Assembly: GCA_040219255.1 (NCBI GenBank)
Contig: JAVJSW010000046.1
Location: forward strand, 32,001-96,000
Direction of reading: 5' to 3'
Length of the DNA: 64,000 nt
Source of the DNA: Sumerlaeia bacterium
GTDB taxonomy: Bacteria > Sumerlaeota > Sumerlaeia > SLMS01 > JAHLLQ01
Shown here: positions 27,969-56,403 of the stretch, piece after piece
Layout: the number at the start of each line of letters is the position of its first letter
Numbering within the stretch: the stretch's first letter is position 1
The notes under the pieces: model-generated
Told to the model about the DNA's origin: nothing
Databases searched by the model: none
Seen by the model: the letters and a program-made list of their open reading frames with translations, nothing else
Translations under genes and position numbers: made by a program

Positions 27969-29609
27969 ATGCTGAATATTTTCAAGAAGAAGCGCGGGAA
28001 CTGGAAGGACGACATCCTTTCCGGCCTGACCGTATCGCTGGCGCTCGTGCCCGAGGCTATCGCCTTCGCGTTCGTCGCGGGCGTTTCGCCGCTCGTGGGC
28101 CTGTACGCTTCGTTCTTTATCGGCCTGATCACCGCCGCGTTCGGTGGCCGGCCGGGCATGATCTGTGGCGCCACGGGGGCCCTGGCCGTCGTGATGGTGA
28201 CCCTTGTCAAGCACGGCAACGAAATCGGCGGCGAAGGCGCCGGCGTGGAATATCTGTTCCTGACGGTGATTCTGATGGGCATTCTGCAGGCCTCCGCCGG
28301 GGTGCTTCGCCTTGGCAAGCTCATCCGCCTCGTTCCCCATCCGGTCATGATGGGTTTTGTGAACGGTCTGGCGATCGTGATTTTCCTGTCGCAAATCGAC
28401 ATGTTCAAGGTGCGTAACGGCGCCGAGGTCGGCGGCTGGCTCGAAGGCTCGTCGATGGCGATTATGCTGGGCCTGACGGCGCTGACGATGGCGATTATCT
28501 ATTTCCTGCCCAAGTTGACCAAGGCCGTCCCGGCCTCACTGGTGGCGATTCTGGCGGTCACCGGCATCGCCTTCTTCGGCGTCGAGACGCAGGTCGTGGG
28601 CGATCTCGCCTCGGTCAAGGGCGGGCTGCCCATTCCCGGCATCCCCAGCGTGCCGCTCAACATGGAAACGCTGGCCTTCATTTTCCCCTACGCGGCGGTG
28701 CTGGCGGCCATTGGCCTGATCGAGTCGCTGATGACGCTGCAATTGATCGACGTGCTGACGGAGTCGCGGGGCCGGGGCAATCGCGAGTGCGTCGCCCAGG
28801 GCGCCGCCAACGTGGTCACCGGATTTTTCGGCGGCATGGGTGGCTGCGCCATGATCGGCCAGAGCCTGATCAACATCGAATCGGGCGGCCGCGGCCGCAC
28901 CTCGGGAGTCGTCGCCGCCGTGGCGCTGCTCCTGTTCATCCTGTTCGGTTCGCCCTTTATCGACCGCATTCCTATCGCCGCCCTGACCGGGGTGATGTTC
29001 ATGGTGGTCATCGGCACCTTTGAGTGGGCCACCTTCCGCACCTTTGGCAAGGTCCCCAAGAGCGACCTGCTCGTCGTGGGCATCGTCACCGTGGTCACCG
29101 TGTGGCACGATCTGGCCCTCGCCGTGCTGGCCGGCGTCGTCGTCTCGGCGCTGGTGTTCGCGTGGAAGAGTTCGCGCCACGTCACGCTGGAGACCGTGAA
29201 ATCCACGGACAACGAGCGCGTTTATTCGCTCAGCGGGCTGCTCTATTTCGGCTCCGTGGTGGACTTCAACAACCACTTCAAACCGGCCAAGGACCCGGAG
29301 AACGTGGTGATCGATTTCCTCGAAGCCCGGGTGTGCGACATGTCCGGCCTGGAAGCGATCAACGTCCTGGCCGAGCGCTACCGCAAACTCGGCAAAGTGC
29401 TGCACGTGCGGCATCTTTCGCCCGATTGCCGGGCCATGCTGACCAAGGCCGGGGCTCTGGTGGACATCGAAGTGGCCAGCGACGACCCGGAATACCTGGT
29501 CACCCGCATCGGCCTGACCGCCGCCAAGGACCGCGCCGACAAGCAGAAACCGGCCGTGACCCTCCCCACCCCCGCCCTGCCCACCCCGGCGATTCCAGCG
29601 GCCCAGTAG
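27969..29609 (+). CDS. SulP/SLC26-family inorganic anion transporter with STAS domain
   Basis: DILSGLTVSLALVPEAIAF, GRPGMI, GGCAMIGQS, C-terminal STAS (GLLYFGS, DMSGLEA). Confidence 0.95.
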   Translation: MLNIFKKKRGNWKDDILSGLTVSLALVPEAIAFAFVAGVSPLVGLYASFFIGLITAAFGGRPGMICGATGALAVVMVTLVKHGNEIGGEGAGVEYLFLTVILMGILQASAGVLRLGKLIRLVPHPVMMGFVNGLAIVIFLSQIDMFKVRNGAEVGGWLEGSSMAIMLGLTALTMAIIYFLPKLTKAVPASLVAILAVTGIAFFGVETQVVGDLASVKGGLPIPGIPSVPLNMETLAFIFPYAAVLAAIGLIESLMTLQLIDVLTESRGRGNRECVAQGAANVVTGFFGGMGGCAMIGQSLINIESGGRGRTSGVVAAVALLLFILFGSPFIDRIPIAALTGVMFMVVIGTFEWATFRTFGKVPKSDLLVVGIVTVVTVWHDLALAVLAGVVVSALVFAWKSSRHVTLETVKSTDNERVYSLSGLLYFGSVVDFNNHFKPAKDPENVVIDFLEARVCDMSGLEAINVLAERYRKLGKVLHVRHLSPDCRAMLTKAGALVDIEVASDDPEYLVTRIGLTAAKDRADKQKPAVTLPTPALPTPAIPAAQ

Positions 29610-29643
29610 GGCGAGAGCGGGGCGTGGCTGGTTTATGATTTTA

Positions 29644-29746
29644 GCCACGGATGAACGCGGATGGCGCTGATGATGGGGTGTAGGGGCGGGGGAAGTAGAA
29701 GTATCAGAGCCCCGAAGCATCTGTGTTCATCCGCGTGATCTGCGGC
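29644..29746. repeat. Fold-back RCRGAT-unit element A
   Basis: Left arm GCCACGGAT-GAACGCGGAT-GGCGCTGAT-G (29644-29672); right arm CATCTGTGTT-CATCCGCGT-GATCTGCGGC (29718-29746). Confidence 0.85.
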
Positions 29747-29855
29747 AAAATAAAGACCTTCGTGCTTCCATGGGGCGTGGCCCCAATCGTCCCCCCGGCG
29801 GTACAACTCTTGCCTCCCTCTCGACCTCACTCCAGGGGACCCGGGAGGGCTGGTC

Positions 29856-30854
29856 TTGAGCGCTTGGATTTGGACAGTCGTTTTGGTGGCCGCCGCCTGG
29901 CTGACCAACTGGGGAGCCGATCATTTGGTCGGGCCGTTTCAGAAGGTGCGCCGCCGCTGGGGCCTGACGGGCGTGGGCGGGGCGTGTCTGATCGGCATTT
30001 TCACCGGCAGCCCGGAATACACCACCAACTCCGTCAGCGCCCTGCGCGGCGTGTCCGACATCGGCCTGGGCAACATGCTCGGGGCGAACATTTTCTCCAT
30101 ACCGCTGGTGATCACCGTCGGCTGGCTGGCCCAGCGCTTCGGCCCCGTCGAACGCACCGAGGACGGGCGCCCGCTCCTGCATCTGGAACACGCCACCATC
30201 ACGGTGCTGACGGTGCCGTACCTGGGGATCGTCGCTCTGGTGGGGCTCCTGACGCTGCCGGCGGGGTGGCGCGGGCTGCAACCCATCGATGGGTGGATCA
30301 TGCTGGGGGCCTATTTGGCGTTCCTGGTGCAGGGGCTTTTGCGGGGCCGGGGCGAATCGCACCGTGAACGCTGGACCGCCCGCGGCATCGCCATGGCGCT
30401 GCTGGGTGTGGGGGCGCTGGGGCTGGGGGCGTACCTGATCGTGCGCTCGACCGAGCAGATCGCCAACGCGCTGGGGATTTCGCACCTGGTGGGCGGATTG
30501 TTCCTCGCCGGGTTGGCATCCATCGTGCCCGAGGCCCTCAAGACCTGGAAACTGGTCCGCGCCGGCCAGGCCACCGCCGGCGCCACCAGCGTCATTCCCG
30601 ACAACGCCGTCACCATGACGCTCGGTTTTTTGCCGCTGGCGCTGGTGGGAACGGCGATCGAGGATTTCCGCCTTTACTGCGTGAACCTGGCTGCGGCGTT
30701 CCTGCTGGCGGCGGTCTTCGCCGTGGTCACCTACACCGGCAGCCGCGAGCGCGGCATCGACCTGCGCGAAGTCCTTTGGCTCGATGGAATTTGCGTGGCG
30801 TGGGTGGGGGTTGTGGGGTGGCTGATCGCCACCGGTCAGATTCAGCAAGGCTAG
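29856..30854 (+). CDS. Ca2+/cation antiporter (CaCA, YrbG-like)
   Basis: About 10 TM helices in two repeats; GSPE...GNMLGANIF alpha-1 and ASIVPE...DN alpha-2 segments; GGGAGG RBS with TTG start. Confidence 0.8.
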   Translation: MSAWIWTVVLVAAAWLTNWGADHLVGPFQKVRRRWGLTGVGGACLIGIFTGSPEYTTNSVSALRGVSDIGLGNMLGANIFSIPLVITVGWLAQRFGPVERTEDGRPLLHLEHATITVLTVPYLGIVALVGLLTLPAGWRGLQPIDGWIMLGAYLAFLVQGLLRGRGESHRERWTARGIAMALLGVGALGLGAYLIVRSTEQIANALGISHLVGGLFLAGLASIVPEALKTWKLVRAGQATAGATSVIPDNAVTMTLGFLPLALVGTAIEDFRLYCVNLAAAFLLAAVFAVVTYTGSRERGIDLREVLWLDGICVAWVGVVGWLIATGQIQQG

Positions 30855-30874
30855 CCTCAGCCGCCGCCGAAAAA

Positions 30875-30925
30875 CCGCACACCGTTAAAACCCACAAGAA
30901 ACCCAGCGGTTAGTCACGCGACAGG
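30875..30925 (+). repeat. 51-bp direct repeat, copy 2
   Basis: CCGCACACCGTTAAAACCCACAAGAAACCCAGCGGTTAGTCACGCGACAGG; 47/51 identical to 27479-27529. Confidence 0.9.
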
Positions 30926-31016
30926 CCGCCCTCTTTTCCATACCTTAGGCGCACTTCAATTCCGGAGGCCACGTCCCATGACGCGCACCGCTCGCTACAC
31001 CGAAAATATTGTTTTA

Positions 31017-31131
31017 GCCACAGATGAACACAGATCTCGCAGATGGTGGGGCGCGGGTGGGGGAGGCACTGAGGGAGAAAAAGGGATCTCACAAATCCAA
31101 CCCATCTGCGCCCATCCGCATCATCTGCGGC
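31017..31131. repeat. Fold-back RCRGAT-unit element B
   Basis: Left arm GCCACAGAT-GAACACAGAT-CTCGCAGAT-G (31017-31045); right arm CATCTGCGCC-CATCCGCAT-CATCTGCGGC (31103-31131). Confidence 0.85.
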
Positions 31132-31172
31132 AAGAACCCTTCGTGCCTCCGCGATGCCATAAGGTGTGGAGA

Positions 31173-31838
31173 TCAGGTGGTTGCGAACAAACCTTCCTGG
31201 CGGCGCAAGTCTGCTTCGCGAAGAATAGTAAGGTATCTCTCTTCGAGCTGATTCGGCGAGATAAAAATCTCGTTATAGTGTCCGTCGAATTGGAAAGGAA
31301 TGTAACCCTTGATCAGAAATTGCCGAAGGTCGAACTGAGATGTGGGAATCTGAATATGATAGAAGAAGGTCTCCAGAGTGACTTTCTCTGGTTCGATTCG
31401 CAGAAATCCGTAAAGCTCATCACGGCAATCCTTGCCGAGCGGACTCTCCCCCCAGTGAGAGAGAACCACCAAGTCGGTCAGGTCGGGCTCAAGCCACCAT
31501 TCCGATTTTTTTCGACGGTACTCTTTCATCAAATCTTTACGAGCTTGGTAGTGAAATGCGGTCTTGGCCGGTTTGGCCTTATAGGTGAAATAAAAATACA
31601 TTCCGAGGGCCCCGCCAATCAATCCTGGCGTGAAACTACGAGTGGTTTCTTCGAAGTCGCCGGACCAAGCGGCGGGAAGGAGGTGGTTGAACAATGTATC
31701 CACAAAGGAAGAGAAAATGAGAATAAGGAGGACGCTGCAAAAGAAGTTGCTTCGGATGTCCCGCCGGGACGCCCGACCGCCCGACCATCGAGCCCAGCGG
31801 CTGGTTTTCTTCAATTCGTAGGCGAACGCCGTGTTCAT
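31173..31838 (-). CDS. Hypothetical 2-TM membrane protein (paralogue of 31835-32461)
   Basis: Two hydrophobic segments; shares LYGFLRI...LET..YH..IPT..FD with its neighbour; lower GC; ATGA overlap. Confidence 0.75.
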   Translation of the reverse strand: MNTAFAYELKKTSRWARWSGGRASRRDIRSNFFCSVLLILIFSSFVDTLFNHLLPAAWSGDFEETTRSFTPGLIGGALGMYFYFTYKAKPAKTAFHYQARKDLMKEYRRKKSEWWLEPDLTDLVVLSHWGESPLGKDCRDELYGFLRIEPEKVTLETFFYHIQIPTSQFDLRQFLIKGYIPFQFDGHYNEIFISPNQLEERYLTILREADLRRQEGLFATT

Positions 31839-32461
31839 GCGGGGCCCTCCGACATCGGCATCATCGACATCAGTCTCTTCCTCGCCCTGCCTTCCATGGA
31901 TATGTCGAAGACGCGGCGCCTCCCAGCGTACTCGAACCAGAGAGTACCTGTTTCAAGGAAGGAGTTGAAATCGAAGCGATCCGTCGGAATCCGGACGTGG
32001 TAGCTCGATGTCTCCAGGAAGAGAACCCCGTTCGCGATGCGCAGGAATCCATACAGACTCTTCCGGCCGGGAAGCGACAAGTCGATTTCCTTCGAACGAA
32101 CCGTCACCACCATATCGTCCGGACCGGGTTCAAAGAGCCAATGCGGCGCGGAGTCTTTGTATTCTTTCTTGAGGAAGAATCGGGCCATGCGCTCGATCAT
32201 TGGGTGGCCGGAAACATTGTCCACGAACGTGATGGCGGTCATGCAAAGGATAAGTAAAACAAAAAAAACATAGCCGTCTGTGATCCAATGCCATTCAAAC
32301 AGATCAGAAAGAAGATACGCTGTTCCCGAGAATAGCGGGGCAAAAAGTAGACCAAAAGCCAGGCTATACAGAGAGGTGATATCCCGTGTTGCCACCCCGC
32401 CATGCATCCTCCGCCCCCACCGGCTCGGCACCTTCTCTTCGCAAATAATCTCGGTTTCCAT
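31835..32461 (-). CDS. Hypothetical 2-TM membrane protein (paralogue of 31173-31838)
   Basis: AAGGA RBS before ATG at 32461; two TM helices; shared C-terminal domain; lower GC. Confidence 0.75.
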   Translation of the reverse strand: METEIICEEKVPSRWGRRMHGGVATRDITSLYSLAFGLLFAPLFSGTAYLLSDLFEWHWITDGYVFFVLLILCMTAITFVDNVSGHPMIERMARFFLKKEYKDSAPHWLFEPGPDDMVVTVRSKEIDLSLPGRKSLYGFLRIANGVLFLETSSYHVRIPTDRFDFNSFLETGTLWFEYAGRRRVFDISMEGRARKRLMSMMPMSEGPA

Positions 32462-32689
32462 GGCTGGGGGTCCTTGATGCGGGAAACTTTCCTTCAGCGG
32501 CAATATTATGCACCACAACATCAGTCGCGGCGCAATTCAAAACCACCCGAACCCCAAGACCTCAGCACCCACGGCCCGGACGCGTTCCAAATCCAAGGCC
32601 TCGACCAAACGCTGGTTCAACAGCGACCTGGGCGAGGACGGGATTCCGACGTGGGGGCCTCGATGTGGCGTGGCTGGTTTTCGATTATA

Positions 32690-32824
32690 GCCACGGATGA
32701 CCGCGGATGGCGCAGATGAGGGGTGGTTGGCGGGGGAGCGGGGCTGATTTCGCAGTGGATGAACCGTTATTCTTTTACCGCTCTCTTGCACAAATCATCT
32801 GCGCCCGTCTGCGTCATCCGCGGC
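32690..32824. repeat. Fold-back RCRGAT-unit element C
   Basis: Left arm GCCACGGAT-GACCGCGGAT-GGCGCAGAT-G (32690-32718); right arm CATCTGCGCC-CGTCTGCGT-CATCCGCGGC (32796-32824). Confidence 0.85.
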
Positions 32825-32831
32825 GAAAACG

Positions 32832-32857
32832 TCTTCGTGTCTCCGGGTCTCCGTGGT
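32832..32857 (-). repeat. Second-family 9-nt-unit arm (CACGGAG type)
   Basis: Reverse complement ACCACGGAGACCCGGAGACACGAAGA matches 56035-56060 at 24/26. Confidence 0.75.
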
Positions 32858-32878
32858 GGAACCTGAATAACCCAACGC

Positions 32879-34414
32879 CTACCCGCAGGCCTCCACCTCC
32901 ACCAGCACCGGCCCCGGCCACGCTCCTTCCCAGTCGATCTGCAGCTCGCGGGCGGGGGCTTGGGTGGGGGGGAGGTCGAGGAGGAGGGAGCCGTCGGCGC
33001 CGACGATGCCGCCCTCCAGGTATTCCTGGTTCGCGAAGACGGCGAGGCGTTCCAAGTCTTCTTCCTCCAGGGCCTCGGCGAATTGCAGGCGCAGTTGCGG
33101 CGCCGGGCCGGCGGGCAGCATGAGCCAGGCGCGGCGGGGGAGGGGGCGTCCGATGCGGCCGCCGGCCTCGACGGGCAGCGGCCACCCGCGATGGAGCGGC
33201 ACCGCGAGCGTGTCGTCGAGCACCACCAGCGGCGCCAGATGGGCGTTGGCATAGGCGCCGAGGGCCTCGCGGCGGATGTCGGCCATGCGCGACTGCCAAT
33301 CGGCCATCAGGTCGGCGGGCGAGAGACCCTCGCGGTCTTTGCCCTGGCGCTTCAGCGAGCGCGGTTTGTGGCGGTCGCGCCGAGCGTAGATGCTGATCCC
33401 GCACCCGAGGAACCGGGCCATCAGGAGCCCGGCGGGGCCGCTGAGCACGCGGCCGTCCCACCGGCTGAGGTCCGCCGGCAGTTTGAGCCGCCGCAGCGCC
33501 CGGGGCATGCGCCGCCCCAGTGAGGGCTGGAACACCTGCACCTGGATGTTTTCGAACCCCGCCCGCTTCAGGGCGTATTCGTATTCCGACCAGAGGCGCA
33601 TCTGCTCGTCGATGCCTTCCTGGTAATCGAGCGTGTCGGCCAGGTACTCGTGTTCGAGGTCGAAGCAGGCGCGGATGCATTCGCCCGCCGCGACGAATTG
33701 ACCACCGGGGCGGCAGACGCGCGCCATTTCTTTCAGCGTGCGGCGCAGATCCTTGACGTGGTGCAGCGACGACCGGGTGAAGACGACATCGAAGGAGGCG
33801 TCGGCAAAGGGCAGGTGCTCGCTGTCGGCGACCATGCGGGGAAAGGTGCGCTCTTCGGCTGTCATGGGGCGCTGGCCGCGATGGATGTCGAAGGTTTCGA
33901 AATCGAATTTCTCGTCCGGGATCAGGGAATAAAGGCGGGGCGAGGCCATCTCGACAGGGGAAAAATCCGCTGCGATGACGCGGGCGCCTCGCTGGGCGAG
34001 GCCGAGGGTGGTTTCGCACATGCCGGCGCCGGTGTCCAGGATCCAGGGCTGGCCAGAGAAGTCGATGCGCTGGACGGCTTGGTCGAAGTAGCGTTTCCAG
34101 ACCGCAAGGGCTTCTCGCACGGCTTCCTTTTTGAACCCGATGCGCTCGGGGGCGATCCAGCCGTCGGCGAGCTTTTCGAAGAAATCGCGGTAGCGAACGA
34201 ATTCGTCCATGAGCCGCGGCGTCGCCTTGTGCCAAGTCAGCAGCACGGGCACGCCGTCGCGAATCGGATAGCGTTCGCCGCAGGCTTCGCAGGCCAGGGC
34301 GCCATCCTCTTCGGCGAGGCGGCCCTCGCGGCATTTGGGGCAGCGGACGCGGCCGAGGGCTTCGGGGTGGGCGAGAATATGATCGGCGGGGGGCGGGGTC
34401 ATTGGCGTATCCAT
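32879..34414 (-). CDS. Class I SAM-dependent methyltransferase with N-terminal Trm112-like Zn ribbon
   Basis: CPKC...CEAC...YPIRDGVP; ILDTGAGMC motif I; LPFADASFDVV; SLHH; RPGG. Start at 34414 or 34402. Confidence 0.85.
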   Translation of the reverse strand: MDTPMTPPPADHILAHPEALGRVRCPKCREGRLAEEDGALACEACGERYPIRDGVPVLLTWHKATPRLMDEFVRYRDFFEKLADGWIAPERIGFKKEAVREALAVWKRYFDQAVQRIDFSGQPWILDTGAGMCETTLGLAQRGARVIAADFSPVEMASPRLYSLIPDEKFDFETFDIHRGQRPMTAEERTFPRMVADSEHLPFADASFDVVFTRSSLHHVKDLRRTLKEMARVCRPGGQFVAAGECIRACFDLEHEYLADTLDYQEGIDEQMRLWSEYEYALKRAGFENIQVQVFQPSLGRRMPRALRRLKLPADLSRWDGRVLSGPAGLLMARFLGCGISIYARRDRHKPRSLKRQGKDREGLSPADLMADWQSRMADIRREALGAYANAHLAPLVVLDDTLAVPLHRGWPLPVEAGGRIGRPLPRRAWLMLPAGPAPQLRLQFAEALEEEDLERLAVFANQEYLEGGIVGADGSLLLDLPPTQAPARELQIDWEGAWPGPVLVEVEACG

Positions 34415-34544
34415 TGCGACTCTGAGGCAAGGACAAGCCCACGAGCGGGCGAAAAGCAAGGGCGATGGGCCTGAAAATCCTTGCCCGGCCCGGTGCCCGC
34501 TTCGCACGGTTTCGCCTCGCCAGGACCCCCACGGAGATATCTTC

Positions 34545-35771
34545 ATGCCCTTCTTCGCCATCAAGAGCCGACACATTTTTTCCATGACGCTGCTCCTCGC
34601 CGCCGTCGCCTTTCTCGGCGCGGGCTGCAAACAGCAAACCCCCGAGGAGCGTTTCGAGGAAGCGATGACCTTGATGCAGGAGGGGCAGACGGCGCGCGGC
34701 GTCATCAAGCTCAAGGAACTGGTGCGCGAGTTGCCCGAGGACCCGGTGGCCCCCGCCGCGAACCTGCAACTGGCCCGTTACTACGTCCGCGAAGCCAACG
34801 CGAACAAGGCCCTCGAGCACCTTCAAGAGGTGCTCGAGGGCCGCGCCATCGGAGACCCCGCCGCCCAGGAAGCGATCCAGGGCATCGTCGCGATTCGCCT
34901 CCAGTTGCAAGACTACGACACGGCCCTCGAAGTCCTGGACTCCGCCGTCGAAGAAGCCGAGGGCATCGTCCGCGAGGACCTGCTGCTCCAGCGCGCCCAG
35001 GTCTTGCGCGCCATCGGGACTCAGACGGAAAACGAGGACATGGTGCAGCAGGCCCTGGCGGAGCTGCGGGACCTGATGCTGACCGCCGGGAACGAGGGCA
35101 TGCGCGGATCGGCCCGTGAAGAGTTGGCCCAGTATTATCGCCAGCGCGGCGACCTCGCCGCCAGCAACGAAGTCTACGACGCGTACATCGAGGCCTATCC
35201 CGGCGACCGCATCGTGACCCAACTGGAAATGGCCAAAGCCATCAATTTGCGCAACGCCGGCCAGCAGGAAGAAGCGGAAGCGGCCTTTGAGGAAGCGGCC
35301 GCCGCCATGCGCGCCGAGGCCGAAGGTGAACTGGATCGCGTGGCCCGGGGCGAGATGATGCTCAATCTGGCCCGTTACCACGAACTGATGGGCTACAATT
35401 CGGAAGCCCGTGCCATGATGGAGAAGGTGATGGGCGATAACGTCGGCACGATGCTGGCCCTGCGCACCCAATTCGATATCGCACGCATGGAAGCCCAATC
35501 GGGCAACCTGGACGAAGCGCAGGCGATCTACGAGCGCATGGTGAAGGACAATCCGAACTCGAGCGTCAGCGCCCAGGCGGAGCAAATGCTCGCCCAACTG
35601 AGCCAAATCCGAGCGCAGCTCGCCGCCCAAACCGATGCCACCACGGAAACCTTGACACAGGCGCTCGCGACCACCGGCACGCTCGGCGCCCTGGACGAGG
35701 AAATGCCCAACATGCCGGCGCTCGGGGGGGAAGACGCCGCCTCCTCGCCCACCGCCGAAGGAGCGATGTAG
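34545..35771 (+). CDS. TPR-repeat lipoprotein
   Basis: Lipobox GAGC; repeated helical TPR-like units (EAYPGD, KDNPNS); GGAG RBS. Confidence 0.8.
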   Translation: MPFFAIKSRHIFSMTLLLAAVAFLGAGCKQQTPEERFEEAMTLMQEGQTARGVIKLKELVRELPEDPVAPAANLQLARYYVREANANKALEHLQEVLEGRAIGDPAAQEAIQGIVAIRLQLQDYDTALEVLDSAVEEAEGIVREDLLLQRAQVLRAIGTQTENEDMVQQALAELRDLMLTAGNEGMRGSAREELAQYYRQRGDLAASNEVYDAYIEAYPGDRIVTQLEMAKAINLRNAGQQEEAEAAFEEAAAAMRAEAEGELDRVARGEMMLNLARYHELMGYNSEARAMMEKVMGDNVGTMLALRTQFDIARMEAQSGNLDEAQAIYERMVKDNPNSSVSAQAEQMLAQLSQIRAQLAAQTDATTETLTQALATTGTLGALDEEMPNMPALGGEDAASSPTAEGAM

Positions 35772-35775
35772 CCCC

Positions 35776-36945
35776 GTGCTGCCTTCAGAGGCGAATATTC
35801 CCGATCGTAGCCAACCGATCCGCATCGTAAAATGCCGCACGCCCCGGGCGGTCGATGTTTTTTGCGACTTCGTCTACAAACTGAGGGGAAGCGAGCCCCG
35901 ATGGGTGCCCCCGCTGCGGCGCGATCAGCGCACCCTTCTCGATCGACTCAAGCACCCGTTTCACGATCACGCCCAAGTCGAGTACTTCCTGGCCAAACGG
36001 GGCGAACGGATCGTGGGCCGCATCGCCGCCATCGAGAACTTCGCCCACAACGAAGTCCACAATGAGCGCATCGGGTTCTTCGGCTTTCTCGAAGCGGAAG
36101 ACGACGCGGAAGTCTTCGCCCGGCTCCTCGCCGCCGCCGAGCGATGGGCCAAAGCACGCGGCCTGACGGCACTGCGCGGGCCCTGTTCCTTCAGCACGAA
36201 CGAGGAGTGCGGCGCCCTGGTGGGTGGTTTCGATATCGAGCCCATCTTGATGATGGGTTATCATCATCGGTGCTACTCGGCCAACATCGAAGCCGCCGGT
36301 TATGGCAAAGCCGAGGACCTGCTCTGCTTCTGGGTCGATCGCTACACCGACACCGAGCGCCTGATGCGCATGGCGAGGTCGATGCGCCAGCGCATCGAGC
36401 GTTCCGGCCGCACCTTCACAACGCGCCCGCTGGACAAGAAAAACTTCGAGGCGGAGGTGCAACTGGTCCAGAAAATCTACAACGCGGCCTGGGAGAAAAA
36501 CTGGGGCTTCGTTCCCATGACGGAGAAGGAGATCGATTTCCTTGCGAAGGAACTGAAGCCCATCGCCACGCCGGAACTGATTCGCTTCGCGCTGCTCGAC
36601 GGCGAGCCGGTGGGCCTTGTGCTCGGGCTCCTCAATTACAACGAAGTCCTCAAATTCATGCGGGGCCGGCTGGGACCGAAGGAAATCGCCATGATGCTTC
36701 TGCTCAAGAGCCGCATCCGCAGCGCCCGCATGATGATGCTTGGCGTACTGCCCGAGTACCGCCGCCTTGGCATCGACATCCTCTTGATCGAGGAATTCGG
36801 CTACGCCTGTGAAAAGCTCAACATCTGGGGCACCGATCTCTCCTGGATCCTCGAGCGCAACACCGCCATCACCAAAGTCATCATCGCCTGCGGCGGGCGC
36901 GAATGGAAGCGCTATCGGCTTTACGAGAAGAGCCTGCTGGGGTAG
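35776..36945 (+). CDS. Tandem-GNAT acyltransferase, YghO/bacterial ceramide synthase-like family
   Basis: WVPPL, HPFHDH, GRIAA, GFFGFLE, LRGPCSFSTNEECG, YNAAWEKNWGFVP, LGVLPEYR, SWILERN. Confidence 0.75.
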   Translation: MLPSEANIPDRSQPIRIVKCRTPRAVDVFCDFVYKLRGSEPRWVPPLRRDQRTLLDRLKHPFHDHAQVEYFLAKRGERIVGRIAAIENFAHNEVHNERIGFFGFLEAEDDAEVFARLLAAAERWAKARGLTALRGPCSFSTNEECGALVGGFDIEPILMMGYHHRCYSANIEAAGYGKAEDLLCFWVDRYTDTERLMRMARSMRQRIERSGRTFTTRPLDKKNFEAEVQLVQKIYNAAWEKNWGFVPMTEKEIDFLAKELKPIATPELIRFALLDGEPVGLVLGLLNYNEVLKFMRGRLGPKEIAMMLLLKSRIRSARMMMLGVLPEYRRLGIDILLIEEFGYACEKLNIWGTDLSWILERNTAITKVIIACGGREWKRYRLYEKSLLG

Positions 36946-36979
36946 GGTTGCGGGGAGTGGCTGGCCGGCCTTTTTTTTA

Positions 36980-37124
36980 GCCACGGATAAACACAGATAG
37001 ACACAGATTCTTGTTTTGGTATCATCTGCAATCGGGCATGAAGCGATGGCGTCAGGGATAGAATTCAATCATTTTGCGATATTTCTGCTGGCCTTTTCCC
37101 GCTTCATCCGTGCCCATCCGTGGC
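36980..37124. repeat. Fold-back RCRGAT-unit element D
   Basis: Left arm GCCACGGAT-AAACACAGAT-AGACACAGAT (36980-37008); right arm ...CATCCGTGCC-CATCCGTGGC ending at 37124; AT-rich loop. Confidence 0.8.
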
Positions 37125-37155
37125 TTAACTCCTCCTCTGTGAACCTCTCGCCTGC

Positions 37156-40100
37156 GTGAACTCCGTGTCCCAAAGCCCCACCTGGAACAAAGCCCAAGCC
37201 CAAGCGATCCGCGCCCGGGGCCAGAACGTTCTGGTCAACGCGGGTGCCGGAGCGGGAAAGACCGCGACCCTCGTCGAGCGCGTGATCCAGTTGGTCATGG
37301 GCCCCGACGCCCACAGCCTCGATGAACTGCTGATCGTGACGTTTACAAAGGCCGCCTCGCGGGAAATGCGCGAGCGACTCGGAAAGGCCCTGCGCAAAGC
37401 TCTCGAAGCTGCCCGCCTCGACCCAGTCAAGATCGACCAAATCCCGCGCCTTCAGTCGCAGATCAACATTCTGCCCCGCGCCCAGATCAGCACCCTACAC
37501 AGCTTCTGCCTGAATCTGCTGCGCCAGCACGCCGGCGCCATCGGCCTCGCACCCGATTTCGAGGTCATGGCCGACGACGAAGTGCGCCTCCTGCGCCATG
37601 AAACCATCCAGGAGGTTATCGAGAACGCCCTCGCCGCGGAAAGCGATGGCGTGCTCTTCGATCTCCTGAGCCAACTATCGCCCGCTTCGGCGCCGGACGA
37701 ACTCCTGAAAATCGTCGAGAACACGATCGGTTTCCTCGAAGGTCTCTCCGACCCGCGCGGCTGGATCGACAGGCTGGCCCTGCCGTTCTACGATGAAGCC
37801 GCCGACGACGCGCTGCCGCTCGCCGAGACGCGGGCCGGGCGGATGCTGATCCCGATGGTGGAGGAGCCGCTGCGGGAGGCGTTGGCGCTGTATGAAGTTT
37901 TCCTGCAAGAACTCCCCGGGCAGCCGGAGAAATCATGGGCACAGGACATCGTGGCTCATTGCCTGGAGGCGCGCGAGCATCTTCGAGCGTTGCTGCGATG
38001 GGACGATGCCACGGCCGAACTCGCCGGGTTGGAGGAATCCGCGCCCCTTCCCGATCTCTGCGCTCTGCTCAAACTTCCCCCGCGGCGCAACGCGGGCAAG
38101 AATCCCGAACCCGCCACGGCCTATGTCAGCGTCGAAGGCGGCGTGTTGAAAGACGCCCTCGAACCGCCCGCCAAAGCCCTCTCCCAGGACTGGCTCCAGG
38201 AAGGCCAGACCCTCGCCCAGGTTCGCGCCGCCATCGCCGCCACCCGGCCCTACGTGCGGCTGCTGCTCGTCGATCTCGCTCTGGCCGCCAGCGATGCCCT
38301 CCTGGAAAAATGCCTCGATCAGAAGCGCCTCACTTACAGCCATCTCGAGTCTCTGACGCTTCGCCTCCTCGTCGGCGTAGACGGCGAACCGACGGCCGCC
38401 GCGCGCGACTTGCAGGCCGAAACGGCCTTCGTTCTCGTCGATGAGTTCCAGGACGTGAATGGTACCCAGGCCGCCCTCTTGAAAGCCGTCGCCCGCGCTG
38501 GGCGGCCGGATGCGCCACGGGGCGAGGCCGGAAACCTCTTCGTCGTTGGCGATGTGAAGCAGAGCATCTACCGATTCCGCCAAGCCGATCCGACTCAGTT
38601 CCAGGCACTCTACCGCTCCTTCGCGGATTTTTCCGAAACGGCCCGGGCCCACCCTGGCGCGCGGATCGACCTGCTGGAGAACTACCGCAGCGCCCCGCCG
38701 CTGCTTGAGGAACTGAACCGCTTCTTCGCCGCCCTCTTCAGCCCCCGCATCGGCGCTGTGGCCTACGATGCCCGCCAGGCCTTCCGCCCCGGCTTGCCCG
38801 AGCCCGCACCGGAAGACGACCGCGTCCGCCTCGCGGTTCATCTGCTGAATAAGGACGCCGACGAGGCCGATTTCGAAGACAGCGTCCAGGACCACGAAGT
38901 CAGCGATCGAGAAGCCGGCGAACAAGAAGCCGACGATCTGGAAGCGGGCGAACGCGAAGCCCGCTATCTGGTGACGCTGATCCGACGCCTCCACGAGACG
39001 GAGGGCGTGCCCTACAAAGACATAGCCGTTCTGGTCCGCTCGGCTTCCGGCTACGCCACCAAACTCGCCGAAGCCTTCAACGAATACGCCGTGCCGTTCT
39101 TCACCCAGGCCAACCTCGGCTTCCTGGCCCAGCAGGAAATCCAGGACGTCCTCGCGTTGCTGCGGGTGATCGACAACCCCTACCGTGACGTGTCGCTTGT
39201 TGGGGTGCTGCGCGGCCCGTCGGGCGGCTGGAGCGAGGACGATCTGGCGCGGCTGCGGCTTCTCGACCGCGACGGCCGCATCTACGACAACCTGCGCCTC
39301 GCGGCGGAACGGGACGCGCCTTCGATCGGCGATAAGGCCCGCGCCATCCTCGATTGCCTGGCCCAATGGCGCGAGGCCTCCAAACGCGAGAAAATGGCCG
39401 ATCTGTTCGCCCATCTCTACGACGAGCTGAACCTGCCGGAACGCCTCGCGACACTGCCCAATGGCGATCAGCGCCGCCTCAATCTCCAGTTCCTCCAGGA
39501 TCGCGGCGTCCAGTTCGACCGCTTTCGCCGCAAAGGCCTCGGCCAGTTCCTCCGCTTTCTTGAAGACCTGATCGAGCGCGACCAGGACCTCGGCACGCCC
39601 GCCGCCGAACCGGTCGACGACAACAGCGTCAAGATCATGACGATCCACGCCAGCAAGGGCCTCGAATTCCCCCACGTCTTCATCCCCTTCATCGGCAAGA
39701 AGTTCAACACGAAGGATCTGATCGGCAACGCGATCTGGGACCGCGAGACGGGCTTCGCGGTGAAGTTCTTCCCTGGCGCGAAGTACGGCGAGAAGCGCTC
39801 GTCGGCCGCTCCAGCGCTGCTGCGCAAGGCGCTGGAAGATCAAGCCCGTGGCGAGGAATTGCGCCTCCTCTATGTCGCCATGACCCGCGCCAAGCAGTCG
39901 GTGACGATGATCGGTACGGCCAAGAAAATGGCCGATGTCGTCTCGAAGCACCAGGAGGCATTGGCCGCCGGCGAGTCTCGCACGGGCCTGGAGAACGTCG
40001 AGGAAACCGCCGCCGCCAAATCGTTCCTCGATTGGACGCTACTGGCGCTGCGGGGCCGAGCAGAGTTTCTGGCGGTGTCGGCGGACACGCCGCAGAACGT

Positions 40101-55936: not shown

Positions 55937-56034
55937 GGGCGAGTCGCGATCGAACGGGGGCTAACTCCAAGACCTGCCGACTCCCGCCCCCGGAGGCAAG
56001 GCCAGAGCGGTGCGACTGGTGGGCTTTGTATTCT

Positions 56035-56278
56035 ACCACGGAGACCCGGAGGCACGGAGATGTGGTTGGCTGGAGAATCAGACTCTTCGTCAATCAGCCG
56101 AATAGACAGGGGGGTGCTTCCTGGCCATGCTTTAAAGCCAGTTAAATCAATTATTTATGGATTCTCAGGCGCCAGCAATCAATCTGCGCCATCTGGGTAA
56201 TCTGTAGCCAACAAAATCCTGTCGGCACGCGCTCGCTTCCCCCGAAGCCCCATCCCATTCATCCCATCCATCGGCGGC
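56035..56278. repeat. Cluster of 9/10-nt-unit arms of both families
   Basis: ACCACGGAGACCCGGAGGCACGGAGA (56035-56060); ATCTGCGCC-ATCTGGGTA-ATCTGTAGC (56182-56208); CATCCCATT-CATCCCATC-CATCGGCGGC (56251-56278). Confidence 0.6.
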
Positions 56279-56403
56279 CAATTCACCTCTTCTCCACTTG
56301 CGGCTCCCGGCGCCCCTTCCCAGGGTCAAACCGCTCACGTCGTGTGTGATCAGACCCAATCGCAGCTTTCCCCCGCTGCCGCTCCTGGTATTCGCTGGCC
56401 CTC

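Follow-up and report, generated by a model that had tools for sequence, protein, structure and literature searches.

The 64,000-nucleotide window analysed here (positions 32001-96000 of contig C46, JAVJSW010000046.1, in the assembly of a Sumerlaeia bacterium, GCA_040219255.1, hereafter G000; 5.35 Mb, 63.6% G+C, 83 contigs) contains four fold-back elements, A to D, which belong to a real, intergenic and patchily distributed repeat family in which the pairing of a gene with surrounding arms holds. A–D resemble the intervening sequences (IVSs) of 23S rRNA, not integron recombination sites; a preliminary description of the window had proposed an attC-like architecture. On balance, we favour the explanation that they are old copies without a gene ('non-autonomous' or 'empty') within a selfish class of IVS-like palindromic cassettes that crosses phyla; this slight preference covers the classification and the selfish spread taken together. 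In such a class, an arm would be an inverted array of two to four short tandem units, here RCRGAT (GAT-type) at a period of 9–10 nt with GCCRCRGAT outermost, and the loop would be a free position for cargo. Rare full-length members of the RCRGAT family would carry one gene for a GxxExxY nuclease of the PD-(D/E)xK type in the loop, and other unit families would carry other GxxExxY clades or the four-helix-bundle '23S rRNA IVS protein'. The class would be of the same kind as the hairpin-bounded IVSs of 23S rRNA, yet placed between genes.

Inspection of the sequence confirmed four elements built of RCRGAT units, all on the + strand: A (29644..29746), B (31017..31131), C (32690..32824) and D (36980..37124). 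They are 103–145 nt long and have two or three RCRGAT units per arm around loops of 45, 57, 77 and 87 nt, respectively. A has three RCRGAT-type units in each arm; the middle right unit of C and the third right unit of D are degenerate. The ends are GCCRCRGAT and ATCYGYGGC, which bears out the earlier statement that attC cores are absent. The pattern GCCACRGATRNNCRCRGAT, comprising the end motif and the second unit, matched the window six times with up to two mismatches, against 0.25 expected, a count reached by none of 100 shuffles, and RCRGATNNNNRCRGAT, two units at 10-nt spacing, matched eight times against 0.18 expected. Each element forms a long imperfect hairpin, and the stems span 25–35 bp with few mismatches. 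DNA folding z-scores were −2.3, −2.6, −4.1 and −2.6 for A to D, and 2, 4, 0 and 2 of 200 shuffles, respectively, folded as well as the native DNA. RNA fold energies (+/− strand, kcal/mol) were −48.3/−35.2 for A, −53.3/−51.6 for B, −77.4/−62.6 for C and −50.8/−51.8 for D. The loops hold no gene, gave no blastx signal below an E value of 0.02 and showed no mutual similarity by blastn (E≤1e-3). The claim that the loops are unrelated therefore stands at the level of blastn, although a G-rich stretch opens many loops among the oriented copies of G000.

The elements extend beyond their outermost units. A and C are identical at 48 of 53 bases (29621-29673 versus 32667-32719, counted by hand from the alignment), as had been noted. 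What had been called a shared flank belongs to the element, because its G-box and spacer recur 5′ of other copies. The box of A is GGCGTGGCTGG (29621-29631; with its T-rich spacer, 29621..29643, +), that of C is identical (32667-32677; with its spacer, 32667..32689, +), and a G-box-like AGTGGCTGG with a T-run precedes D (36956..36979, +). Across G000, an outer G-box (GGCGTGGYKGG) and T-rich spacer were found 5′ of 9 of 35 copies and never on the wrong strand, compared with about 1% of background 45-mers. The outer flanks extend the dyad, with a GC skew of +0.38 upstream and −0.33 downstream, and the TTTA...TAAA flanks of the copies are themselves palindromic. Just 3′ of the right arm, all of A–D have CTYCGTG/CTCYGYG units. 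A is followed by a single AAG-type unit, CCTTCGTGCTTCC (29757..29769, +), a half arm of a sister unit family; B is followed immediately by AAG/GAG-type units (31139..31153, −), and C by a half arm of GAG/AAG-type units (32833..32858, −; CTTCGTGTCTCCGGGTCTCCGTGGTG on the + strand).

In regular-expression censuses, about 35 copies with GCCRCRGAT...ATCYGYGGC ends were found in G000, for a total of about 35–40, supporting the view that the elements are a true family of fold-back repeats. A covariance model, R1, derived from 20 canonical copies of other phyla, found 20 places in G000, five of them new, when 150 of the 1039 candidates from a first look were scored; A, B and C are among these places, and D was missed at E≤0.01. 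The two strands scored about equally with this model. All 32 loosely matched GAT-type candidates, and likewise all 32 strict elements of both unit types, lie outside called genes in a genome whose coding share is at least 77% by a rough gene caller, and the copies tightly fill short intergenic spacers. The 32 strict elements lie between co-directional (16), convergent (9) or divergent (6) genes or at a contig edge (1), against 62.6% co-directional, 18.5% convergent and 18.9% divergent among background intergenic regions of G000. Third units, which the search pattern did not demand, were intact RCRGAT in 13 of 17 cases by hand count.

A sister family with CACRGAG (GAG-type) units at an 8-nt period is commoner than the GAT type, its pattern matching G000 70 times. 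GAG- or AAG-type units occur within 60 nt, on one side at least, of 13 of 32 GAT-type copies, A–D among them, against 3.8% of the background. In 4 of the 32, GAG-type units stand on both sides, which places a GAT hairpin inside a GAG-type loop; these nested GAT-in-GAG/AAG hairpins are at G000 C2:24337-24512, C18:69835-69953, C30:47987-48096 and C54:20294-20438. One-sided GAG/AAG units were on the 3′ side of the + strand in nine of nine copies and on the 5′ side in none, which may be chance; four of the nine are A–D. A fifth element in the window, composite and degenerate (56030-56290), consists of one left arm of the GAG type (56036-56062) and, after it, two right arms of the GAT type (~56183-56210 and ~56251-56280).

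The link between such arms and a gene is seen in the rare full-length copies. Four of the five PF13366 genes of G000 lie between inverted arms of tandem units, and one of them, the GxxExxY gene at C35:23797-24186 (143 bits against TIGR04256), sits in arms of the RCRGAT family. A paralogue belonging to the GAG clade lies at C35:25586-25933. PF13366-type genes were present in 36 of 41 genomes of relatives; at 30 loci in relatives, inverted flanking arms scored at least 25 in 24 and at least 37 in 19, compared with two and none, respectively, among 400 random genes of G000. A tie to GxxExxY nuclease genes, which the preliminary description had suggested, is thus real in G000 and its relatives (arms around 4 of 5 and 24 of 30 genes). 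When 120 loci of other phyla (857 kb) were fetched by the arm pattern alone, only two GxxExxY genes were present in them (L039, from a Schlesneria metagenome-assembled genome (MAG), and L075), and both lay exactly between RCRGAT-family arms. The gene-bearing copies found, namely the C35 copy, L039, L075, L144 and L142, all carry a GxxExxY nuclease, and the inner arm borders ATAAR/YTTAT are common to gene-bearing and gene-less copies. A–D thus share the architecture of this cassette (TIGR04256/PF13366 in arms) but have no loop-encoded protein.

The type of unit also follows the type of nuclease. Arm types were labelled by eye before the protein tree was built, and all eight proteins with ...GAT arms fell in one clade (support 85/84). 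A separate clade of 23 proteins (99/96) comprised 14 with GAG-type arms, five with AAG-type arms, three for which no arms were found and one with another unit, and a third GxxExxY clade had other units. Among the 22 closest homologues in the phylum, ...GAT units were again found at 14. The nuclease clade goes with the unit type. The GxxExxY protein keeps the GxGxxExxY motif, with D73, E83 and K85 invariant, and its structure model (predicted local distance difference test, pLDDT, 96.4) has a PD-(D/E)xK fold. With modest TM-scores of 0.5–0.58, the solved folds closest to the model are those of Cas4, lambda-exonuclease-type enzymes and the Holliday-junction resolvase Hjc; no solved structure related by sequence was found, and PADLOC returned nothing beyond a weak Cas4-like match on one GAG-clade protein. 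GxxExxY/PDDEXK_3 proteins are tabulated with unknown function in PMC3424549.

Arms of this kind also wrap genes of a second family, PF05635 (the four-helix-bundle '23S rRNA IVS protein'), which G000 lacks but 49 of 75 genomes of the phylum possess. Tandem-unit inverted arms, with other unit vocabularies, surround 26 of 30 PF05635 loci. None of 20 four-helix-bundle loci overlaps an Rfam rRNA, and the 23S gene of G000 (C56:103441-106372) measures 2932 nt against a 2925-position model and has no insertion. According to a study of the Coxiella burnetii IVS (PMC4990558), terminal inverted repeats pair into a 28-bp stem with the S23p open reading frame in its loop, and three tandem GACAGAT heptamers, whose number varies between strains, lie upstream of the reading frame in the 5′ arm of the stem. 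RNase III cuts this IVS in vitro at the start of the first heptamer, and the same account, written more than 25 years after IVSs were discovered, calls their origin and mobility still unclear (PMC4990558). The core ACAGAT is common to these heptamers, as given there, and to the units of the A–D family. Like A–D, 23S rRNA IVSs have a long stem of terminal inverted repeats, a variable loop and an optional small open reading frame; like the RCRGAT family, they are sporadic, look horizontally transferred and, in the Coxiella case as described (PMC4990558), have tandem repeats in a stem arm. In contrast to IVSs, A–D lie between protein genes and not in helix 25 or 45 of the 23S rRNA; their loops are gene-less, the cargo of the RCRGAT family is a GxxExxY nuclease, and RNase III cutting of A–D is conjectural, by analogy.

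The distribution of these patterns among genomes is uneven. The GAT-type pattern matched 54 times in G000 and not once in ten genomes of its family; it was present in 31 of 75 genomes of the phylum, in which the next highest counts were 19, 14 and 10. For the GAG-type pattern, matches numbered 82, 37 and 1 in three congeneric species, and 35 and 0 in two species of a second genus. At least 120 contigs, with titles that between them name ten phyla or more, contained exact pattern matches; rich carriers among these records include Bryobacterales, Pyrinomonadaceae, Tepidisphaeraceae and Chthoniobacter, and genus g38 is another rich carrier among the genomes compared. At one orthologous site, the DNA between two conserved genes is a short GAG-type hairpin in genome G047, a stretch of about 18 nt in G048 and another kind of tandem-unit repeat in G046. 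Genome G022 contains tandem arrays of a composite repeat (C28:1622-2104, C28:7277-7958 and C89:7846-8525) that are missing at the matching sites of its congener G018; in one case about 680 nt of repeats headed by GAT units stand where G018 has 80 nt, and at the two further arrays the flanks map to different G018 contigs, which could reflect rearrangements or MAG mis-joins. One G022/G018 breakpoint has no element. Each array unit begins with GAT-type units, followed by a palindrome, GTATATAC, and a hairpin, GGACCAGATGG; the GAT-type units thus head a different, directly repeated element, which indicates that the unit array is modular. The arm pattern also occurs on 48 viral or proviral contigs of IMG/VR (L248-L295), some with several copies (four in L280); 17 of 55 such arms have a partner arm within 1.2 kb, and those loci contain no GxxExxY gene.

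How might such cassettes multiply? Under the explanation that we favour, copies would spread as DNA, probably aided in trans by a nuclease that is encoded in the loop and acts on the unit arrays, in events that resemble homing or consist of cut-out and repair. Where transcribed, stems of 25–35 bp would be cut by RNase III, as in IVSs with GACAGAT units, and this cutting would leave insertions nearly harmless to neighbouring genes. We regard the nuclease-driven step as possible though doubtful. The RCRGAT family also shares with miniature inverted-repeat transposable elements its terminal inverted repeats, short non-coding core, many copies and lineage-specific bursts. Unlike in those elements, no DDE transposase partner was found, and the loops are not deletion remnants of a gene-bearing copy.

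Several observations weigh against this explanation. The loops of A–D hold no remnant of a GxxExxY gene, which means that gene-less copies are not simple deletion derivatives of the gene-bearing copy resident in the genome. Counts of GxxExxY genes and of hairpins do not go together: no GxxExxY gene was found in G022, which has 14 pattern matches (the genome is 75% complete), and no homologue of at least 50% identity was found in G053 or G069, which have five matches each. The same wrapper surrounds non-nuclease cargo, so the arms need not be nuclease sites. The arms are only about 80% identical among the window copies and to copies on other contigs, which implies that no copy is recent; the four copies in the window showed no sign of a transposition event, a target duplication or an empty site. 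The nearest genome relative by the GNAT protein is 57% identical, and identity did not exceed 48% when metagenomes were scanned with the Na/Ca-exchanger protein. Homogeneous units and the link of clade to unit could come from slippage and co-inheritance alone. Finally, we know of no transposase that consists of a PD-(D/E)xK nuclease alone.

One alternative keeps the nuclease and reverses the relationship, in that the hairpins would be landing pads. The nuclease would read both unit arrays and cut near the centre, and its gene would be copied into the loop by homing; gene-less hairpins would be uninvaded or decoy targets that arise and spread by another route. The cargo is always in the loop, gene-bearing and gene-less copies have the same inner borders, some hairpins are nested in another hairpin's loop (4 of the 32 GAT-type copies) and the nuclease clade matches the unit type, all as this alternative would have it. 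However, G000 has a resident GAT-clade gene and yet 35 targets that look uninvaded, and both the multiplication of gene-less copies and the four-helix-bundle cargo are left unexplained. We consider this alternative unlikely.

An equally unlikely alternative is that the elements serve the host as RNA, as RNase III processing sites, 3′-end stabilizers or insulators between cistrons, and that the association with small genes is secondary. The long, well-paired stems would suit such a role, as would the tight filling of short spacers and the cutting in vitro of IVS stems with GACAGAT units by RNase III, as described in PMC4990558. Against it, congeners differ from 0 to 82 matches with none kept at an orthologous site, and 6 of 32 copies lie between divergent genes. 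The more stable strand was the sense strand in 12 of 20 co-directional contexts, which amounts to no strand preference relative to transcription, and it showed no link with local GC skew; the strand bias anticipated in the preliminary description was not borne out. A–D are not among the five terminator-like calls in 29300-37400 (7.9 expected) and do not qualify as intrinsic terminators, the right arms being followed by A-rich sequence and not a U-tract. An Rfam scan of the window gave no family at gathering score; at E≤1 there were two weak, unrelated matches, both outside the elements.

It is very unlikely that the elements are arrays of binding sites for a host protein that reads direct repeats once per helical turn, such as a response regulator or a nucleoid protein. 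The 10-bp period would fit such a protein, as would the conservation of the unit core while spacers vary, with the third unit intact in 13 of 17. But presence is patchy among close relatives, sister families have 8-nt periods and quite different units, and the copies have no particular placement at promoters.

Mobilization of single-stranded hairpins by a RAYT (Y1 HUH) transposase, as for repetitive extragenic palindromes (REPs) and REPINs, is more improbable still. Like REPs, members of the RCRGAT family are short intergenic palindromes with many copies and a patchy distribution, in which a rare coding copy or associate stands beside many gene-less ones. G000 has two Y1_Tnp genes that are weakly RAYT/TIRYT-like, at 77 and 64.9 bits against a cut-off of 80 (NF047646); they lie at C56:125921-126934 (L002; gene C56:126591) and C68:109226-109921 (L001:1411-2106; gene C68:109316). 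Neither gene adjoins a copy, however, and the C56 gene is framed by an unrelated inverted repeat of its own, GGAGCGCGAGCGTCCCGCTCGC. By the definition given in PMC3733652, REPs are palindromes of 20–40 bp with a GTAG or CGTC tag, whereas A–D are 103–145 nt long, lack either tag at both ends and have tandem-unit arms. The gene of the RCRGAT family is a PD-(D/E)xK nuclease inside the hairpin and not a REP-flanked Y1 transposase, and the orientation of copies is unlinked to local GC skew.

The proposal with which the window was first described was that A–D are attC-like sites of a hairpin-targeted gene-shuffling system, with a conserved register of reciprocal bulges. In A, B and C the units are indeed spaced 10 then 9 nt in the left arm and 9 then 10 nt in the right arm (read as reverse complement), which forces one unpaired base on either side, and D is symmetric (10/10), as described. 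This register was found in only 5 of 35 copies in G000 (A, B, C, C17:25536 and C39:152962, partly read by eye) and in none of 28 canonical copies of other phyla, among which 10/10 spacing on both arms is nearly universal. Judged from these sequences, the reciprocal register is a subfamily trait and no family-wide constraint. Nor do the units vary so that one strand keeps pairing through G·T, as had been argued: at the four R/Y pairs of 57 elements, summed by hand, G·T (17 cells) and A·C (26 cells) both occur.

Covariation gave no better support for a maintained fold. Paired bases agreed at the four R/Y positions in 53, 45, 47 and 40 of 57 elements, against 28–32 expected, but units that do not pair agreed as strongly (L4-L14, 50/57; L4-R14, 48/57; L6-L16, 43/57). 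In alignment A3, the true pairing gave 91.3% paired cells and 27 double changes, and pairing shifted by one unit gave 86.3% and 23. That mis-registered pairing scores nearly alike indicates that the signal comes from the units of an element being alike in 'flavour' and not from base pairs being maintained.

Gene content and synteny around the elements likewise gave no demonstration of gene shuffling. The genes around A–D lie on both strands and encode a SulP permease, an Na/Ca exchanger, a methyltransferase, a TPR protein, a GNAT protein and an AddA-like helicase. Functions are ordinary for most of the genes that separate elements, and genes were host-like in G+C content in five of the six between-element intervals examined, the B–C interval alone being low. 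The TPR-GNAT adjacency is retained in 10 of 10 relatives and all other neighbours differ. At this family-level divergence, breaks in synteny occur with and without an element, being found at D and also at the element-free methyltransferase|TPR junction. Metagenome contigs over B, C and D (three DNA runs of one study; no RNA run was listed for the window) showed no joints, skips or empty sites; contigs of run X3 match the left arm of D only. GTTRRRY matched the window 43 times against 66.6 expected and not consistently at element ends, and none of 19 tyrosine-recombinase (PF00589) matches in G000 is on contig C46, where no cassette array was found. Two copies elsewhere in G000 lie near tyrosine-recombinase matches, which may be chance: C68:309622-309640 (about 0.2 kb from a match at C68:309820-310344) and C61:24038-24153 (about 2 kb from a match at C61:26260-26427).

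An attC-like role can therefore be called largely refuted: A–C share with attC sites an imperfect palindrome, a variable centre and unpaired bases on both sides, A–C have one orientation, B and C frame a low-G+C island with two paralogous genes, and two of the three G022 arrays stand at places whose flanks fall on separate contigs of a congener, but A–D have no R/L core sites, conserved extrahelical bases, nearby intI or cassette array, and the register, covariation, gene content and breakpoints described above all speak against it.

The low-G+C island framed by B and C covers about 1.4 kb (31100-32500; 47–57% against about 64%). It holds two − strand genes arranged tail to head (31173-31838 and 31835-32521) that are paralogous (33% identity, E 2e-19). 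Neither has a Pfam, NCBIfam or PADLOC match, and Atlas gave only weak, PH-like structural hints. The census of inverted repeats in G000 had two by-products, a 37-nt CRISPR-like repeat at a contig end (C49:1-421) and a perfect palindrome, AGTCTCGACGTCGAGACT, that recurs at C8:8667-10018 and C14:55957-57322.

In text searches of the literature, we found no description of the repeat family or of a hairpin wrapper around GxxExxY genes, although a text search cannot look for the motifs themselves. For one IVS, tandem heptamers are already in print; their generalization to a class of wrappers appears, from the published text available to us, to be unpublished. Inverted tandem-unit arrays wrap both gene families, which would place the origin of IVSs and the function of GxxExxY/PDDEXK_3 proteins in one frame: gene-less copies of the wrapper are numerous between genes in many phyla, and the unit type corresponds to the nuclease clade. 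We tentatively extend this to a single super-class of mobile cassette, a bolder idea that we would not yet expect to hold, in which tandem-unit palindromes with a one-gene loop would span at least ten bacterial phyla and the classical 23S IVS would be the special case resident in rRNA. In that super-class, the GxxExxY nuclease would recognize the short unit code of the arms around its gene (...GAT versus ...GAG) and would cause cassettes, or gene-less shells such as A–D, to be copied into intergenic DNA as well as into other hairpins' loops. The wrapper common to both gene families explains a frequent source of spurious small open reading frames and assembly breaks in environmental genomes. 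It also offers a concrete, testable substrate for an uncharacterized nuclease family, and if the nuclease does read a short repeated code, it may provide a programmable or modular scaffold for DNA recognition.

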